Below, in pieces: positions 8,825-16,017 of a stretch of DNA of 64,000 nt. The DNA is from Escherichia coli (GTDB lineage: Bacteria; Pseudomonadota; Gammaproteobacteria; Enterobacterales; Enterobacteriaceae). The stretch lies in assembly GCF_003018255.1 (NCBI RefSeq), contig NZ_CP027440.1. The stretch is one strand, 5' to 3'. Position 1 is the stretch's first letter; every line of letters begins with the position of its first letter. Below the pieces are notes generated by a model. The model saw only the letters and a list, made by a program, of their open reading frames with translations. It did no database searches and was not told the DNA's origin. The translations under genes were made by a program, and so were the position numbers.

Positions 8825-9685
8825 TTAAAATTGATAACCAATAGTAGTATAGGTTCCCCATCCTGTGTTTTTTAATTCAAATGGACCATCTCCGAAGTTA
8901 ACTTTCTCCCCAGCATTCCATTGTCCACCGTTGTGAAAATAACGTAGTGTAAATGCAAATTTCCAGTGTTCATATAGCAGGGAAAGGATATGGCTTGAAG
9001 CAATAGCATTACTGGTTCGTTTATTATTGTGTGATTTGTCCGCAAGATCGGAGCCAAAATCAAAGTTAGTAAAACTATTGTATACCAATCGCCCTCCGAA
9101 TAAATGGGTAAGAGGAATGCTATATTTTATTTTGAATCGATATCCGTCCCATTCATTTTCATTAGCGGCACCATAGTTTTGCCACTGATACTTGGCGTAT
9201 ATATTGGCAGAAAGCTTAATTGGTAGACCCGTGTCGATATCTGTACCAAGCCCCATATACCATGTACTTTGCCGGGATGACTGGTTGTCACCCATATCAT
9301 AGACATAGTTGTTTGCAATGAACCATTCTTTAAAAGGGCCGAACGCAAGATTTAATCCGGTCAATTTGTCAATGGAAAACCGAGGTTCTATTTCCGTAAA
9401 TAGTGGTGAGCCCTCATCCCAGATCCCAACATCATAGTGACTGCCGACGCCAAAGAATTTTGGTAGATCAACATAACCATAAAAATCAAACCAGTCTTTT
9501 CTTCCTGCTACAGTATATTCAGGGTAGAGGTCGTTAGTCAGTCTTGGGCCAAAGCGAGAGTCTGTGCGACCAATGACATTCAAGCTTTGATGTAACCAGC
9601 TTTCATCAATTTTAATTTCCTGAGCGTTTCCAATGCAAGGTATTAATAGAATGGATAAAGCTATCCCGTGCTTTTTTATACACAT
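8825..9685 (-). CDS. Tsx-family nucleoside-specific outer-membrane channel paralog
   Basis: 286-aa ORF with signal peptide; long colinear blocks match recalled Tsx ([98 protein letters not shown]; C-terminal aromatic GYQF). Confidence 0.85.
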
Positions 9686-9724
9686 AAATATATCTCATTA
9701 TTTATTGTTGATTTAGAGAAAAAT

Positions 9725-9752
9725 AATGCCATTCAGTGAATGAATGGCATTA
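9725..9752 (-). terminator. Hairpin terminator between the first nucleotidase gene and the Tsx-like gene
   Basis: Inverted repeat aatgccattcagtgaatgaatggcatt with T-run on the minus strand; a TATAAT-like hexamer overlaps it. Confidence 0.45.
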
Positions 9753-9763
9753 TAATTTTTTTA

Positions 9764-11383
9764 TTATTTGCTAACGTCCACCCGCATTTCATTTACCTGT
9801 GCAGGCGTAATCTTGTGGCCTTTCTTCAAATAATCGATCACGACATCGGACATGTTATTTCCGGCGCGGACCTGAACATTTTTCCCTTCTTTGAATGCCA
9901 GAAAACCATCGCCCCCCAGTGCAAGGAAAGTCGTTGTTGCAACATGGTAAATATTCGTATCAACGATCTCTTCACCATTAATTTTAAAAGATACTATGCG
10001 CTGACCTACTGGTTTCTTCGGGGTATAGCGCATTTCTGCGCCTTTTGACATTTGCAGGATGCCATTGGTAAGCGATGCCCCGTGTTCCAGTAGGTTACGC
10101 AGATCCTTACCGCTGAGATCCATTTCAGTAAGTTCATTCTTGAAGGGGAATGTACTGGTAATGTCGCCAAAGGTAATCGTGCCTGCATTTATATCCGCAC
10201 GTAAGCTGCCGGAGTTTATCAATGCAATCTGTGCAGTCGGTGCAGCGACAAGCATTGCATCGGTAAACAGGTTGCCAAGTTGCGATGACTCACCGTAGGC
10301 ACGAGTTAATGCAATCGATGATTCACCGACTGGTTGGCGTACAAGATCCGCCAGTTTTTTATTCCAGCCATTGATAACTTTTTGTGTGGTTGGATCAGGT
10401 ATCCATTCATCGGCATAAACCGTTTTCAGCTCAAAGCTCTTCACTTTATGAGTACGAGCTGTAGGGTTGACATCAAGGATTAATTTACCAATATCGATAC
10501 CGCCACTGTCAGTCGAAAGGATTAAGGTGTTGCCGACTTTGATTGGTTCTGGCGTTCCGACGTGGGCATGCCCGGTAATCAGAATATCCAATCCTTTCAC
10601 CTTGCTTGCGGTTTGAATATCTTTATCAAGAGCGCGTCTAACATCTGTATTGCCAATGCTGGACTGACGCGCCGGTACGCCTTCATGAACCAGCGCCACG
10701 GTGAGGTCAACCTTATCACGTAACTCATCGATATAATGCTGCAAATACTTCACTTCATCACGTGCTTCAATCCCCTGATTCTTGAGGGTCGCGGAAGATT
10801 TATCAAATCGGTTATTATTGTCATTATCGAGTCCCTGGAGAGAGAGCTCCGAGACCGTGTCATTAAATGCAAATACGCCGTGTAGCCCAACAATACCAAT
10901 CTTGATGCCATCTTTTTCCAGGATGGTGTAGGGCTTGTTCCAGAAGGGTTTCTCACTCTCTTTATGATAAACATTGGCTAATAAAACAGGGAAATTCGCT
11001 TTGCTTAATTGTCGGAGGGCATTATCCCAGCCATGGTCAAACTCATGATTACCGATTGATACTGCGTCAAAAGGCATGGTATTCATAATATCAATTATTG
11101 CTTCGCCCTTTGTCAGGCTACTGATATATGGCCCGGTGAAATAGTCTCCAGCATCAAAATAAAAGGTGGCTTTATTTTTGGCTTTCTCTTGTTTTACTAA
11201 CGTGGATATATTGGCAAAGCCACCAATGTCGCGTTTTCCGTCTGCGACATACGGTACTTTATAGGAATCCACATGAGCGTGAAGATCATTGGTATAAATA
11301 ATCGTGACATCCTGCGCCATAACTGAGGTCGAAAAAATAGTCAGCAATGTTGCGGCAAATAAAGTACGCTGCGCTGTTTTCAT
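9764..11383 (-). CDS. Exported bifunctional metallophosphatase/5'-nucleotidase (UshA/CpdB family), paralog A
   Basis: Signal peptide MKTAQRTLFAATLLTIFSTSVMA; metallophosphatase motifs [30 protein letters not shown] plus C-terminal 5'-nucleotidase domain. Start set at second ATG (11383), 6 nt after AAGGA; track used 11389. Confidence 0.85.
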   Translation of the reverse strand: MKTAQRTLFAATLLTIFSTSVMAQDVTIIYTNDLHAHVDSYKVPYVADGKRDIGGFANISTLVKQEKAKNKATFYFDAGDYFTGPYISSLTKGEAIIDIMNTMPFDAVSIGNHEFDHGWDNALRQLSKANFPVLLANVYHKESEKPFWNKPYTILEKDGIKIGIVGLHGVFAFNDTVSELSLQGLDNDNNNRFDKSSATLKNQGIEARDEVKYLQHYIDELRDKVDLTVALVHEGVPARQSSIGNTDVRRALDKDIQTASKVKGLDILITGHAHVGTPEPIKVGNTLILSTDSGGIDIGKLILDVNPTARTHKVKSFELKTVYADEWIPDPTTQKVINGWNKKLADLVRQPVGESSIALTRAYGESSQLGNLFTDAMLVAAPTAQIALINSGSLRADINAGTITFGDITSTFPFKNELTEMDLSGKDLRNLLEHGASLTNGILQMSKGAEMRYTPKKPVGQRIVSFKINGEEIVDTNIYHVATTTFLALGGDGFLAFKEGKNVQVRAGNNMSDVVIDYLKKGHKITPAQVNEMRVDVSK

Positions 11384-11423
11384 TCGCATTCCTTGTTAAA
11401 TAAATTGACTGATAAATGAGATT

Positions 11424-12974
11424 TTATTTGGCGACGTCCATGACTCGTTTAGTTAAGTCTGGGGTGACAGGTTTATGATTTTTGAAATAATCGATGATAG
11501 ATTCCGCCGAGGTTGTTCCCGGTATCGTCTTCACATTTTTTCCATTCAAAAATGCTTCAAAACCGTCACCACCACTGGCACAAAAGGAGTGCGTGGCAAT
11601 ACGATATGTTTGATTATCTTCCACGGGTTTGCCGTTAATGGTGAAAGAGATTAACCGTTGGTTGAGGGGTTTTTTGCTGTCATAGACAACCGCAACACTT
11701 TTAGAAACTTGTAACACACCGTTAGTTAGATTGGTTGCATGCGTCATCAATGATTTGAGATCGCGGCCCGTCAAATCCATCTCGATGAGGTCATTATTAA
11801 AGGGGAATGTGCTAATAACATCTCCCAGTGTGATATCGCCTTTAGGAAAATCAGCTCGAATCCCACCGCTATTTTGAAATCCGGCAACGGCATCAGGTGT
11901 TTTTTCCATCATTGCATCAAGAATAAGGTTGCCGGTAGAAGAGGAACTACCATACTCACGTGTTAAAACTACGGGAGAATGGCCGACAACTTCCTGTGTT
12001 ATTTTGTTAAGCTTTGCACTCCATTTATCAATAGTATTTTGAACGATGGTGTCAGGTTTAAATTGATCTGCAAAGATGGTGATTAACTCACCATTATAAC
12101 TGTCAATTTTCTTCGTTTTCGGATTGTAATCAAGCACAAGTTTTCCGATGTTGGTGCCGTATGCATCGGTAGATACAATTAATGTGTTATTAACTTTTAT
12201 TGGTTGCGGTGTTCCGACATGTGCGTGACCGGTAATTAAGACATCAACACCATTCACTTTTTTAGCTGTCTCAATATCTGCCTGTAGTAGCCGCTCCACA
12301 TCTTTACTACCAAAGCTTGATTGACGCGCCGGGACACCTTCGTGAATTAGCAAAACGGTAATGTCGACTTTACCTTTTAATTCTGCAAGTGCTTTATTTA
12401 AATATTTAATTTCGTCTCTGGCTTCTACGCCTTCACGTGCTTTTGCCGCGACTGTATCATAGAAAGCGAATGCGCCATGCAATCCAATCACACCAATCTT
12501 TAAACCATCTTTTTCGATAATGGTCCACGGATGATCCCAAACTGGTTTATTCGTATCGGTGTAGTAGATATTTCCCAGCAGAATGGGGAATTTTGCTTTT
12601 GATAACTGAGACACCATATTGGGCACACCGTGATCGAACTCGTGATTACCAACAGACACCGCATCAAAGGGCATAGTGTTCATGATATCAATAATAGCCT
12701 CACCTTTGGTCAGGGTGCTGATATACGGCCCGGTAAAATAGTCGCCTGCATCAAAGAAAAACACATCTTTGCTTTTTTTCTTCGCTTCATTAACGATGCC
12801 TGAAATATTAGCCATACCACCTATAAGTCTGTTCTTATCAACAGCGATGATTTTTGCTGGATTGACATGTGCGTGAATGTCATTCGTATAATAAATAGTA
12901 ACGTCCTGAGCTAGAACACTGTGAGAAAATATCACGCCGAATATGACTGATAATGTTGTAAATACAGTTTTCAT
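11424..12974 (-). CDS. Exported bifunctional metallophosphatase/5'-nucleotidase (UshA/CpdB family), paralog B
   Basis: Signal peptide MKTVFTTLSVIFGVIFSHSVLA; motifs [30 protein letters not shown]; AGGAGG SD just upstream (alternative start 12977). Only 34 bp from paralog A, so probably co-transcribed. Confidence 0.85.
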   Translation of the reverse strand: MKTVFTTLSVIFGVIFSHSVLAQDVTIYYTNDIHAHVNPAKIIAVDKNRLIGGMANISGIVNEAKKKSKDVFFFDAGDYFTGPYISTLTKGEAIIDIMNTMPFDAVSVGNHEFDHGVPNMVSQLSKAKFPILLGNIYYTDTNKPVWDHPWTIIEKDGLKIGVIGLHGAFAFYDTVAAKAREGVEARDEIKYLNKALAELKGKVDITVLLIHEGVPARQSSFGSKDVERLLQADIETAKKVNGVDVLITGHAHVGTPQPIKVNNTLIVSTDAYGTNIGKLVLDYNPKTKKIDSYNGELITIFADQFKPDTIVQNTIDKWSAKLNKITQEVVGHSPVVLTREYGSSSSTGNLILDAMMEKTPDAVAGFQNSGGIRADFPKGDITLGDVISTFPFNNDLIEMDLTGRDLKSLMTHATNLTNGVLQVSKSVAVVYDSKKPLNQRLISFTINGKPVEDNQTYRIATHSFCASGGDGFEAFLNGKNVKTIPGTTSAESIIDYFKNHKPVTPDLTKRVMDVAK

Positions 12975-13017
12975 CATCCCTCCTGGATAGGGTGTGTTAC
13001 ATTTGTTGAATTATTTA

Positions 13018-13040
13018 AATAAAAGACACATCGTGTCTTA
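13018..13040 (-). terminator. Hairpin terminator downstream of the cysteine-rich protein gene
   Basis: aaagacacatcgtgtctt hairpin with T-tract on the minus strand, in an AT-rich spacer. Confidence 0.4.
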
Positions 13041-13206
13041 TTTTATGTAAGCATAGTTCAGAAAAGTATTGTGTGATCTTAGTAACAAATAATGTTATTA
13101 ATTAAACATTGACCATGATTATATTTCACGGTCATACATTTATATATTTAATTAAATGAAAGGTAGTGTTCTCTCTTAATTTATGGTCGTTTGTCGAGTG
13201 TATTGA

Positions 13207-14331
13207 CTAACAAGATGGAGTGAGCGATTCATTGTATTTTAACGCCAGTGAGGTCAGCATTTGTGTTACGCGACCTGCGGATAATAACGCGCTTTGGGTA
13301 AAGTCGTGTTGGTCTGTCAGCCATGTGATAAAACAACGACTGGTTGCCAGAGAAACATTTGCGCCCCTTTCTAAGCAGGCTCCCGTGAGTAGGCAGACCA
13401 TCTTGCAGTTATTCCCCTGCTCCCAGCGCTGCCACTGATTTTGCCACCAACCATGGTATGTCGTTCCCTTAAAATGCCAGGGCGTATCAGCGTTACTGTC
13501 ACTGATTTCTTCTTCTACGAACCAAAGTTCACCTTGTTGTTGGCGGAACTGATCTGCCCAGGCTGTAATAATTGCGCCTCTTAGAAAACATTCGTGTGAA
13601 ATAATATGCGTTTTGACATCTGGATAGCGGATTTTCAGTATTCTGAAATGCCCGTGTGCCGTGATAACCGGGCGTAGTATGGCTCCCTTACCGTTGCGCT
13701 TGAGTACAGCACTGCCATACTGAATTTCATCGAACTGGCTCCGGCGCAAGAATTGCGCTTCACGCATATCTACCTTCTGCACGATATCGCGATGGTGCAT
13801 AGTTGGTTCTGTGTTGCCCTTGTAACTGTACCGCAGACTGTCTCCTGTCTGATGTTGCGTATAATTCGTGGAGAGATGAAGAATGTTGCCACGAGTGGCG
13901 TCAAGACTGACTAAAACATACAGTTTTTGTACTGCGCTGGCCCCTTGAAAGGGTATGAACAGTTGAACGGTTTCAATGGCCTGGGGATGCGTAATTTCTT
14001 TCTGATACTGTTTAGGCGTCCAGACTTTTTTGCAGTTACGGCATTGAATGCGTTGCGAACCCTGTGGATTGTGACCATAACAAATCATGTCTGTGCCATA
14101 ACATACCGGGCAGAAATGACCCTTCTCCGAGGCCCACGTAGATAAGTGAACTGACAACCAGTCACGAAATTGTTGCTCGTCAAACAACGGCGGGTAACTG
14201 CCACATGCCCGACAGTGCAGTGCCGGATAACCCAGTTTATAGTCTGGCCAACTGTAATCTTCCGATGAGGCCAATCCCAAATTTCGGCAACCGAACGTTT
14301 TACAGGCATTAATCGTAAACAGAGTCGACAT
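13207..14331 (-). CDS. Hypothetical cysteine-rich protein with multiple zinc-ribbon-like CxxC pairs; no signal peptide
   Basis: 374-aa ORF with ATG start; N-terminal third has C10/C15, C40-x2-C43, C74-x2-C77, C84, C97-x2-C100 with GHNP between the last two pairs; C-terminal part His/Trp-rich. No family recognised by eye. Confidence 0.6.
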   Translation of the reverse strand: MSTLFTINACKTFGCRNLGLASSEDYSWPDYKLGYPALHCRACGSYPPLFDEQQFRDWLSVHLSTWASEKGHFCPVCYGTDMICYGHNPQGSQRIQCRNCKKVWTPKQYQKEITHPQAIETVQLFIPFQGASAVQKLYVLVSLDATRGNILHLSTNYTQHQTGDSLRYSYKGNTEPTMHHRDIVQKVDMREAQFLRRSQFDEIQYGSAVLKRNGKGAILRPVITAHGHFRILKIRYPDVKTHIISHECFLRGAIITAWADQFRQQQGELWFVEEEISDSNADTPWHFKGTTYHGWWQNQWQRWEQGNNCKMVCLLTGACLERGANVSLATSRCFITWLTDQHDFTQSALLSAGRVTQMLTSLALKYNESLTPSC

Positions 14332-14338
14332 ATATCAC

Positions 14339-14360
14339 CAACGATTTCACAAGGTCGTTG
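14339..14360. promoter_or_regulatory. Candidate operator palindrome in the divergent promoter region
   Basis: CAACGA-N10-TCGTTG inverted repeat immediately upstream of the Cys-rich ORF start and about 100 bp upstream of paralog C. Confidence 0.3.
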
Positions 14361-14463
14361 ATTTTGTCCGGCAACTATCCCCTGCAGATGTGATTACTCT
14401 CACATAAATAAGTCTTTCAGAACGTAATGTAGCAATCCTTTATCTCACTGAAAGGGATTGTTT

Positions 14464-16017
14464 ATGAAAATTAAAATACTTGCTGCGGGTATCGCATTAA
14501 CACTGCCGTTCTGGGCTTGCGCTAAAGATGTCACTATTATTTATACCAACGACCTCCATGCGCATGTAGAACCTTATAAAGTGCCGTGGATCGCTGACGG
14601 TAAACGGGATATTGGCGGCTGGGCAAATATCACTACGCTGGTTAAGCAAGAAAAAGCAAAAAATAAAGCGACATGGTTTTTTGATGCGGGCGACTATTTT
14701 ACCGGGCCATATATCAGCAGCCTGACCAAAGGTAAGGCTATTATCGATATTATGAATACTATGCCGTTTGATGCCGTCACGATAGGCAACCATGAATTTG
14801 ACCACGGCTGGGACAACACATTATTACAGTTGAGTCAGGCAAAATTCCCGATTGTGCAGGGCAATGTTTTTTATCAGAACAGCAGTAAATCATTCTGGGA
14901 TAAGCCCTATACCATCATCGAAAAAGACGGTGTGAAAATAGGCGTTATAGGTTTGCACGGTGTATTTGCCTTTAATGACACAGTATCTGCTGCCACGCGA
15001 GTGGGTATTGAGGCGCGTGATGAAATTAAATGGCTACAACGTTATATCGATGAACTTAAAGGCAAGGTTGATTTGACCGTCGCCCTGATCCATGAAGGTG
15101 TTCCGGCCCGCCAGTCCAGTATGGGAGGCACAGATGTGCGTCGCGCGCTGGATAAAGATATTCAGACGGCAAGTCAGGTGAAAGGGCTGGATATTTTGAT
15201 CACCGGACATGCACATGTGGGTACGCCGGAACCGATTAAAGTCGGCAATACGCTCATCCTCTCCACTGACAGCGGCGGGATTGATGTGGGCAAACTGGTT
15301 CTCGACTACAAAGAGAAGCCGCATAATTTTACGGTGAAAAACTTCGAGCTTAAAACCATTTACGCTGACGAGTGGAAGCCCGATCCACAAACGAAACAGG
15401 TGATCGACGGCTGGAATAAAAAGCTTGATGAAGTGGTGCAACAAACGGTGGCGCAATCGCCGGTTGAATTAAAACGTGCCTATGGTGAATCGGCTTCCCT
15501 CGGGAACCTGGCGGCTGACGCTTTACTGGTAGCGGCGGGTAAAAACACCCAATTGGCGTTAACCAACTCTGGCGGCATTCGCAATGAGATCCCCGCAGGG
15601 GCGATCACGATGGGCGGCGTCATCAGTACGTTCCCGTTCCCCAACGAACTGGTGACGATGGAACTCACGGGTAAACAATTACGCAGTCTGATGGAACACG
15701 GCGCAAGTTTAAGCAATGGCGTTTTACAGGTATCGAAAGGCCTGGAAATGAAGTACGACAGCAGCAAGCCGGTTGGTCAGCGGGTAATCACACTGACTCT
15801 GAATGGCAAACCCATTGAAGATGCGACGGTTTATCACATTGCTACTCAGAGTTTCCTTGCTGATGGTGGAGATGGTTTTACCGCCTTTACCGAAGGGAAA
15901 GCGCGTAACACAACGGGCGGTTATTACGTTTATCACGCGGTGGTTGATTACTTCAAAGCGGGCAACACCATTACGGATGAACAGCTCAACGGTATGCGCG
16001 TGAAGGATATCAAATAA
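14464..16017 (+). CDS. Exported (possibly lipoprotein) bifunctional metallophosphatase/5'-nucleotidase (UshA/CpdB family), paralog C
   Basis: Track start 14458 is TTG; ATG at 14464 follows AAGGGA. Signal peptide [22 protein letters not shown] (possible lipobox Cys); motifs [30 protein letters not shown]. Confidence 0.85.

Follow-up and report, generated by a model that had tools for sequence, protein, structure and literature searches.

That DDE transposases have been domesticated into regulators in eukaryotes is well established, and the plant proteins FHY3 and FAR1 are transcription factors that arose from Mutator-like elements (MULEs). In bacteria, the InsA protein of the insertion sequence (IS) IS1 is itself a repressor, which binds the ends of IS1. 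The derivation of another bacterial protein, TldR, from TnpB is described in PMC10705468. Here a 64,000-nucleotide stretch of the Escherichia coli chromosome (contig NZ_CP027440.1, referred to as the window) was analyzed, and in particular the gene at 13207–14331 on the minus strand, which encodes a protein of 374 residues (WP_001562401.1). This protein is very likely a domesticated dead transposase. Judged from its homology and genomic surroundings, this inactive descendant of an IS1-like transposase probably, if by no wide measure, acts as a sequence-specific transcription factor in partnership with CRP.

The gene lies in the metL–metF interval. RefSeq gives it the same coordinates as the open reading frame (ORF) list, with an ATG start, and names the product "hypothetical protein". 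The first-pass annotation, a reading of the sequence without database searches, had described a 374-residue ORF at this position, divergent from a neighboring gene, with a terminator of its own and no signal peptide, and all four statements were borne out. The divergent neighbor is a 5'-nucleotidase gene at 14464–16017 on the plus strand, and a terminator-like hairpin follows the ORF on the minus strand (13134–13110). No transmembrane or signal-peptide-like hydrophobic stretch was found in the protein by a 19-residue hydropathy scan, in which the maximum was 1.16.

The N-terminal part of the protein contains two zinc modules. The second one (residues 74–105; 14017–14112, minus strand) is a zinc ribbon of the InsA type formed by C74, C77, C97 and C100. 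The NCBIfam IS1/IS1595 zinc domain matched the query with an E-value of 7e-5 and 23.2 bits, which is under the cutoff of 28, and Pfam Zn_ribbon_InsA matched with an E-value of 0.007. InsA or IS1-Zn matches to NCBIfam and Pfam recurred across the family members. When the family profile was compared by hhalign with IS1A, for which the reference sequence was taken from strain CT30, where IS1A sits inside this gene, it aligned to InsA residues 5–88, covering the zinc ribbon and the helix-turn-helix (HTH), with a probability of 96.9% and an E-value of 1.6e-10. The InsA-type HTH lies on a segment of about 80 alignment columns (about 45–85 residues in relatives), which is kept by all the more distant relatives and is missing from the enterobacterial clade. 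No similarity of the family profile to the InsB catalytic part of IS1 InsAB' was detected by hhalign. The profile comparison thus ties the InsA part, and not the catalytic core, specifically to IS1.

The first zinc module (residues 10–43; 14203–14304, minus strand) was recognized from cysteine conservation. It has the pattern N-x-C-K-x3-C-x-N-x-G, and its cysteines C10, C15, C40 and C43 are invariant in the alignment of close homologs (A1) and present in 54–55 of the 58 sequences of the wider alignment (A2). On this pattern, C10/C15 together with C40/C43 most plausibly make up a first four-cysteine site. The positions of the pairs C40/C43, C74/C77 and C97/C100 and of a GHNP motif (residues 86–89) had been listed correctly before; C10 and C15, both invariant in close homologs, had been overlooked. 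A proposed HNH-like or His-Me finger nuclease was rejected. H87 is replaced by Y or R in close homologs and N88 by T in most of the wider family, the Pfam GH-E match is insignificant (E-value of 0.035), and the region is modelled within the zinc ribbon.

Searches of Pfam, NCBIfam, PHROGs, PADLOC and PDB sequences with the query gave sub-threshold zinc-ribbon matches only, and the query alone yielded no confident profile match to a well-characterized family. A role as a component of anti-phage defence found no support either, with no match in PADLOC. An IS1595/IS91-type transposase was tried too. Pfam Zn_ribbon_IS1595 was found in 3 of the 58 members at E≤0.1, neither DDE_Tnp_IS1595 nor a Y2 transposase was matched, and the sole true IS1595-like match (P0261) aligns over the zinc ribbon only.

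The remaining part of the protein, in which the first-pass annotation could assign no motif, is an RNase H-like core of the DDE transposase/integrase type according to the predicted structure (13222–13980, minus strand). The core spans residues 118–263 and is followed by a beta subdomain (268–314) and C-terminal helices (320–370). The AlphaFold model was built from an alignment with distant homologs from the exhaustive profile search described below; with close homologs alone (A1), the predicted local distance difference test score (pLDDT) was 41. The predicted elements are beta1 (118–127), beta2 (136–144), beta3 (150–155) and a helix (183–196), then beta4 (217–219), a helix (221–235), beta5 (241–245) and a helix (248–257). 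In the model, this order is canonical for the RNase H-like fold and gives its three-layer alpha/beta/alpha core. No Pfam or NCBIfam model covered the C-terminal 250 residues in any of the 58 family members, for which only the InsA zinc ribbon was recognized. The C-terminal part had also been called rich in His and Trp; the enrichment is only mild (4.4% His and 3.2% Trp), and the family-wide conserved residues of these types are H228, H246, W295, W296 and W300.

The catalytic triad of the core is lost. From the family alignment and the predicted secondary structure, the triad positions of the E. coli protein are V122, V222 and E247, with the first two carboxylates replaced by valine. Independently of the alignment register, no conserved acidic residue is found in beta1 among close homologs and no acidic residue in 214–237. 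The triad is lost in 54 of the 58 sequences. The second position is non-acidic in 53 of them, the remaining one (P0195) lacks the first, and most lack the first as well. An acidic residue (E or D) occupies the third position in every one of the 58 sequences, and the adjacent H246 is conserved in 49. All three acidic residues were observed only in four distant sequences of 570–613 residues (P0235, P0247, P0249 and P0254), which have T/V-D in beta1, E or D right after beta4, and E or D ahead of the helix after beta5. On its sequence, WP_001562401.1 is catalytically inactive as a transposase.

P0254 was the only one of these four whose locus was examined. It lies in an element of about 2.2 kb whose ends are 35-nt inverted repeats with 91% complementarity (24–2267 in locus L014; 503–2744 in L013), and short assembly contigs break at the ends of this element. 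Such features are those of a real insertion sequence. Immediately after the transposase gene there is a conserved ORF of 68 residues. The catalytic domain of P0254 was matched by none of the NCBIfam transposase models, and for this reason the element may represent an undescribed type of insertion sequence.

WP_001562401.1 has many relatives, and the word "orphan" that had been applied to it has to be given up. A search at E≤1e-3 returned 248 homologous clusters, in which all the named ones are from Enterobacteriaceae, usually annotated as "cytoplasmic protein", with 60–80% identity across genera. An exhaustive profile search over 1.84 billion representatives returned 141 matches (representatives at 50% identity), of which about 50 are full-length, with 400–613 residues and 18–28% identity. 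The named distant clusters that were looked up are from Vibrionaceae (Photobacterium, Vibrio and Enterovibrio), under names as different as "IS1 family transposase", "transposase-like zinc-binding protein" and "lactate dehydrogenase". The last label is carried by P0296–P0306 from Photobacterium, and nothing was found that backs it. Foldseek against AFDB50 added members from Salmonella, Klebsiella, Serratia, Proteus and Atlantibacter, and a second homolog search with a broad alignment returned close relatives only. The family consists of several hundred protein clusters in Enterobacterales and Vibrionales. No publication on it was found in the searchable literature, whose coverage is incomplete.

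The gene behaves as a resident gene. Of 5426 complete E. coli genomes, 1841 have it, each as a single copy, and the metL–metF location was found in all three E. coli genomes with inspected annotation. No terminal inverted repeats flank the ORF, and the large inverted repeats of the region are paralogous nucleotidase genes. The pairwise ratios of nonsynonymous to synonymous divergence (dN/dS) among E. coli alleles and the orthologues of Citrobacter, Klebsiella and Enterobacter are 0.09–0.26, with dS at or near saturation, and not near 1 as in a decaying pseudogene. The NCBIfam curated IS1 transposase equivalog gave the query 22.4 bits against a cutoff of 100. Because the triad, the terminal repeats, the mobility and the curated score all fail, the protein is not an IS1 transposase and should not be annotated as such. 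The case for domestication is based on the transposase ancestry together with the immobility, the catalytic loss, the purifying selection and an orthologous synteny, which is described in the following.

Genes for nucleotide or nucleoside scavenging adjoin the family gene in all of the 36 informative loci, as a periplasmic 5'-nucleotidase, a NupC-type transporter or a nucleoside phosphorylase. In the window, the conserved partner and presumed target is the divergent periplasmic 5'-nucleotidase gene, assigned by annotation, adjacency and a PDB match. Its product matched PDB entries 3IVD/3IVE ("Nucleotidase") over residues 19–517 with 1121.7 bits in a sequence search; no paper describing these entries was found in the searchable literature, again with incomplete coverage. 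This partner is kept in five enterobacterial chromosomal contexts, always with an intergenic region of about 130 nt. The contexts are metL–metF in E. coli and in Citrobacter, the vicinity of dcm/vsr in a Klebsiella species, the vicinity of aerobactin genes in Enterobacter hormaechei, and the metagenomic contig of P0123, a relative that retains the HTH.

One genome per species was scanned with a Vibrionales-type sub-alignment, and 27 loci were obtained from Vibrio, Photobacterium, Enterovibrio, Aliivibrio, Thaumasiovibrio, Psychromonas, Aliagarivorans and Gynuella. A 5'-nucleotidase gene is immediately upstream on the same strand in 22 of these loci, a divergent nupC-type gene is present in three (two of them with tsx downstream), and two are uninformative. 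Other subfamilies adjoin a divergent 5'-nucleotidase (Vibrio taketomensis and a Photobacterium), nupC plus nucleoside phosphorylase, or nucleoside phosphorylase alone. In the P0160 subfamily (locus L047), tsx and a 5'-nucleotidase gene lie 2–3 kb away.

A conserved cis element co-occurs with the gene, as expected for a transcription factor with a cognate site. Conservation in the intergenic region of 132 nt is far higher than at synonymous sites, which are saturated between these genera. Its first conserved block (14337–14366) has the form ACCAACGATTT-(variable)-TCGTTGATTTTG and contains an ACCAAC box with the palindrome CAACGA-N10-TCGTTG (14337–14360, plus strand), a candidate operator located 5 nt upstream of the start codon of the ORF. 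ACCAACGATTT is invariant in six enterobacterial sequences from four genera, the spacer is variable, and Enterobacter differs by one substitution in the right arm, TCGTTG. The palindrome is unique in the window and occurs in related loci at this site only. At 52 nt from the box there is a perfect CRP-type site, TGTGATTACTCTCACA (14389–14404, plus strand). The perfect TGTGA-N6-TCACA is shared by E. coli and Citrobacter, and a partial match is found in Klebsiella and Enterobacter. Another conserved block (block 3), TTTCAGAACGTAA, is downstream of the CRP site. The palindrome at 14339–14360 had been proposed as a probe for electrophoretic mobility shift assays, and this was a good choice because it falls inside the most conserved cis element.

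A similar arrangement was observed in Vibrionales. The upstream regions of the nucleotidase genes, which are otherwise unalignable, contain a conserved box, ACCAACWCAWWWNGWAACT, followed by a CRP-type site. A weight matrix from 14 Vibrio boxes retrieved held-out boxes in front of 5'-nucleotidase genes of other loci and, in Aliagarivorans and Gynuella, in front of nupC. Counted from the A of ACCAAC up to (T)GTGA in the CRP-type site, the spacing is 52 nt in 29 of 33 loci and 51 nt in two. Among these loci are every enterobacterial locus, P0123, V. taketomensis, the nupC-linked P0136 and a Photobacterium whose intergenic region measures 356 nt. The box and the CRP site are about five helical turns apart and should therefore lie on about the same face of the helix. 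The composite of box and CRP site is found a single time in the 64-kb window, and 100 shuffles did not yield it. Since the box is present whichever target adjoins, it follows the family gene rather than a particular target. The box was also considered as a distal CRP site, and this was rejected because its sequence misfits TGTGA-N6-TCACA.

Two further observations concern the box. In P0123, the closest HTH-retaining relative, ACCAAC is at the same position without the TCGTTG arm (L046, 1295–1320), and the HTH-less clade has the inverted repeat (window 14337–14360); the loss of the HTH and the change of operator symmetry may be linked. The IS1 ends in L045, GGTGATGCTGCCAACTTACTGAT and GGTAATGACTCCAACTTATTGAT, both contain CCAAC, which is the core of the candidate operator, and a five-nucleotide match is weak evidence.

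These features suggest how the protein could work. The zinc modules would bind the ACCAAC box beside the gene's own start codon. Where relatives still have the HTH, this domain probably reads the second half of the box. The enterobacterial clade has no HTH, and its box would have turned into an inverted repeat of the half-site that was kept, an arrangement suited to a dimer. Acting with CRP, the protein would regulate, in one direction or the other, the CRP-dependent promoter of the divergent 5'-nucleotidase gene. Given the divergent arrangement and a box only 5 nt from the start codon, it probably controls its own expression as well. The dead core would serve oligomerization and possibly the sensing of a nucleoside or nucleotide ligand, with D201, H228, H246, E247 and R251 as candidate residues of the ligand site. 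Regulation of the divergent promoter by a DNA-binding protein had been among the roles suggested in the first-pass annotation, and the conserved synteny and the cis element support it as the likeliest function. A degenerate zinc-ribbon transposase had been listed there as a separate candidate of IS1595/IS91 type. The transposase part of that idea stands, as IS1/InsA type, by the InsA homology, the DDE fold and the loss of two catalytic positions, and the IS91 part falls. The two candidates coincide, and each finds support.

Several points weigh against a CRP-partnered transcription factor descended from a dead transposase. The InsA-type HTH has been lost in the enterobacterial clade of the E. 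coli protein, and DNA recognition would therefore depend on the zinc modules alone. In most Vibrionales loci, the gene follows the 5'-nucleotidase gene on the same strand, a placement less typical of regulators. Only the hexamer ACCAAC is common to the enterobacterial and Vibrionales boxes, and the PNP-linked locus L010 and the subfamily locus L047 have no obvious composite element. The triad was assigned from sequence alignment and predicted secondary structure, not from residue-level structural superposition. The box could also be bound by another factor of the nucleoside regulon. In several Vibrionales nucleotidase promoters, PurR-box-like palindromes such as ACGTAAACGTTTGCGT and GCAAACGTTTGC are located between the ACCAAC box and the CRP-type site (L008, 4311–4326; L009, 5903–5924; also L019, L020, L026, L031 and L037). 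They hint that purine-repressor control is layered on the same promoters, and known regulators may thus already explain the control at the Vibrio promoters.

Other functions were weighed against the same evidence. The protein could be a domesticated dead transposase that is not a transcription factor, and could instead work in the cytoplasm as a sensor, an enzyme or a nucleic-acid-binding protein of nucleotide metabolism, with a rewired site in the core (D201, H228, H246, E247 and R251). The family-wide conserved polar cluster outside the classical triad, the loss of the HTH in the E. coli clade and the position as downstream operon partner in Vibrionales are all compatible with this. However, such a function leaves the fixed-phase ACCAAC box across different targets unexplained, the InsA-type zinc ribbon is kept in all members, and searches of Pfam, NCBIfam, PDB sequences and PADLOC brought up no enzyme family. 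We consider this explanation unlikely, but it deserves more weight than those that follow.

A cytoplasmic inhibitor or chaperone of the neighboring periplasmic 5'-nucleotidase, which would guard the cytoplasmic nucleotide pools before the enzyme is exported, is improbable. It would resemble the genetically unassigned inhibitor of UshA, a cytoplasmic protein inhibitor documented in E. coli (Glaser 1967 and Innes 2001, as cited in PMC8475336). With this precedent, the cytoplasmic nature of the protein and its tight adjacency to 5'-nucleotidase genes, co-directional with short gaps in 22 loci, would fit. Nevertheless, strict co-occurrence fails, because some members are beside nupC and/or a nucleoside phosphorylase gene without any 5'-nucleotidase within the 5–6 kb flanks. 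The architecture is that of a DNA-binding zinc ribbon joined to a transposase core, and the gene is missing from about two thirds of complete E. coli genomes (3585 of 5426), so that its function is not a universal one in E. coli.

A recombinase or nuclease that still works through non-canonical catalytic residues, for example site-specifically on the ACCAAC palindrome, is more improbable still. Such an enzyme would account for the complete transposase fold, for the acidic residue at position 247 in 58 of 58 sequences beside an H246 conserved in 49, and for a palindromic site next to the gene; yet no acidic residue is at or near the first two catalytic positions, no inverted repeats or target duplications flank the gene, and the single-copy locus is stable across strains and genera. 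A decaying insertion-sequence relic without present function is hardly credible, since the lost catalytic residues, the disruption by IS1A in one strain and the absence from about two thirds of E. coli genomes are set against dN/dS of 0.09–0.26 despite saturated dS, intact full-length orthologues at about 60% identity in many genera without frequent frameshifted pseudogenes, and partner genes and a cis element conserved across two bacterial orders.

The metL–metF island of E. coli exists in two forms (compared over window 8825–16017, L016 6808–9624 and L017 620–7814). The commoner form, found in about 1160 genomes, is a two-gene core of this gene and the divergent nucleotidase gene, with an allele that is 77% identical at the protein level. 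The window has a five-gene form, in which a Tsx-type nucleoside channel gene and two more 5'-nucleotidase paralogues are added to the core; this accessory part (8825–12977, minus strand) is absent from the two-gene form. Between the ORF alleles of the two forms, dS is about 1.1, far above the typical divergence within a species, which points to separate acquisitions or to an old polymorphism. A second CRP-type site, TGTGATCTTAGTAACA, which has one mismatch, is present at 13072–13087, about 100 nt upstream of the nucleotidase gene at 11424–12977 (minus strand), and may be a promoter element of the accessory nucleotidase–nucleotidase–tsx string. In the avian strain CT30 (NZ_CP032078.1), IS1A is inserted near the 5' end of the gene (L045, 2795–3562), and the gene is therefore dispensable in that strain.

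Bacterial "transposase" annotations are usually accepted at face value. In this family the naming is inconsistent, and the core has no Pfam or NCBIfam model. If the regulatory function is true, the protein adds a regulator to the CRP-dependent network for nucleoside and nucleotide scavenging in enteric and marine bacteria. It would also account for the variable metL–metF island in a third of E. coli genomes, including the gene of the 3IVD nucleotidase, and would provide a tractable bacterial model, with a control region of 132 bp, of the change from transposase to transcription factor. It is possible, though we would not go so far as to call it probable, that this is the first recognized family of bacterial transcription factors from a DDE transposase, fixed beside scavenging genes in Vibrionales and Enterobacterales, binding a descendant of the ancestral end sequence (the ACCAAC box) in phase with CRP, and using the dead core as a module for ligand sensing or oligomerization. 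No description of a bacterial regulator domesticated from a DDE transposase was found in the searchable literature, which is incompletely covered. Transposase domestication itself is already known; what is new here is the domestication of a DDE-fold transposase in bacteria with a specific metabolic target.

Compared with the known systems, IS1 is the closest in sequence. InsA/InsAB' has the same type of zinc ribbon, and distant family members also have the same HTH after it. In contrast, InsA/InsAB' has 232 residues and the present protein 374, with an extra N-terminal zinc module, and unlike the IS1 transposase it has only one of the three catalytic residues left, is not bounded by terminal repeats and exists as a single copy at a fixed locus. 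The DDE transposases and integrases (TnsB, ISCth4 of the Mutator/IS256 type, Mos1, Tn5 and the HIV/PFV integrases) share 7–14% identity with it and have D/D/E where this protein has V/V/E; no transposase model of Pfam or NCBIfam recognizes its core. The CytR/CRP regulon has the same class of target genes (tsx, nupC and nucleoside-catabolic genes) and a second factor at a fixed phase to the CRP site. A spacing of about 52–53 bp resembles that of the tandem CRP sites in CytR-regulated promoters. However, the ACCAAC box does not correspond to a CRP site or to a CytR octamer, and the protein is unrelated to the LacI-family CytR, for which a gene is annotated elsewhere in the window region. The logic is that of FHY3/FAR1 and TldR, in which an N-terminal zinc-finger DNA-binding part is joined to an inactivated transposase or nuclease core and the whole serves as a host regulator of specific genes. 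The differences are that the ancestry is IS1-like DDE and not MULE or TnpB, that no guide RNA is involved, and that the host is a bacterium with the promoter of a nucleoside-scavenging gene as the target of a regulatory function that we infer for this protein.

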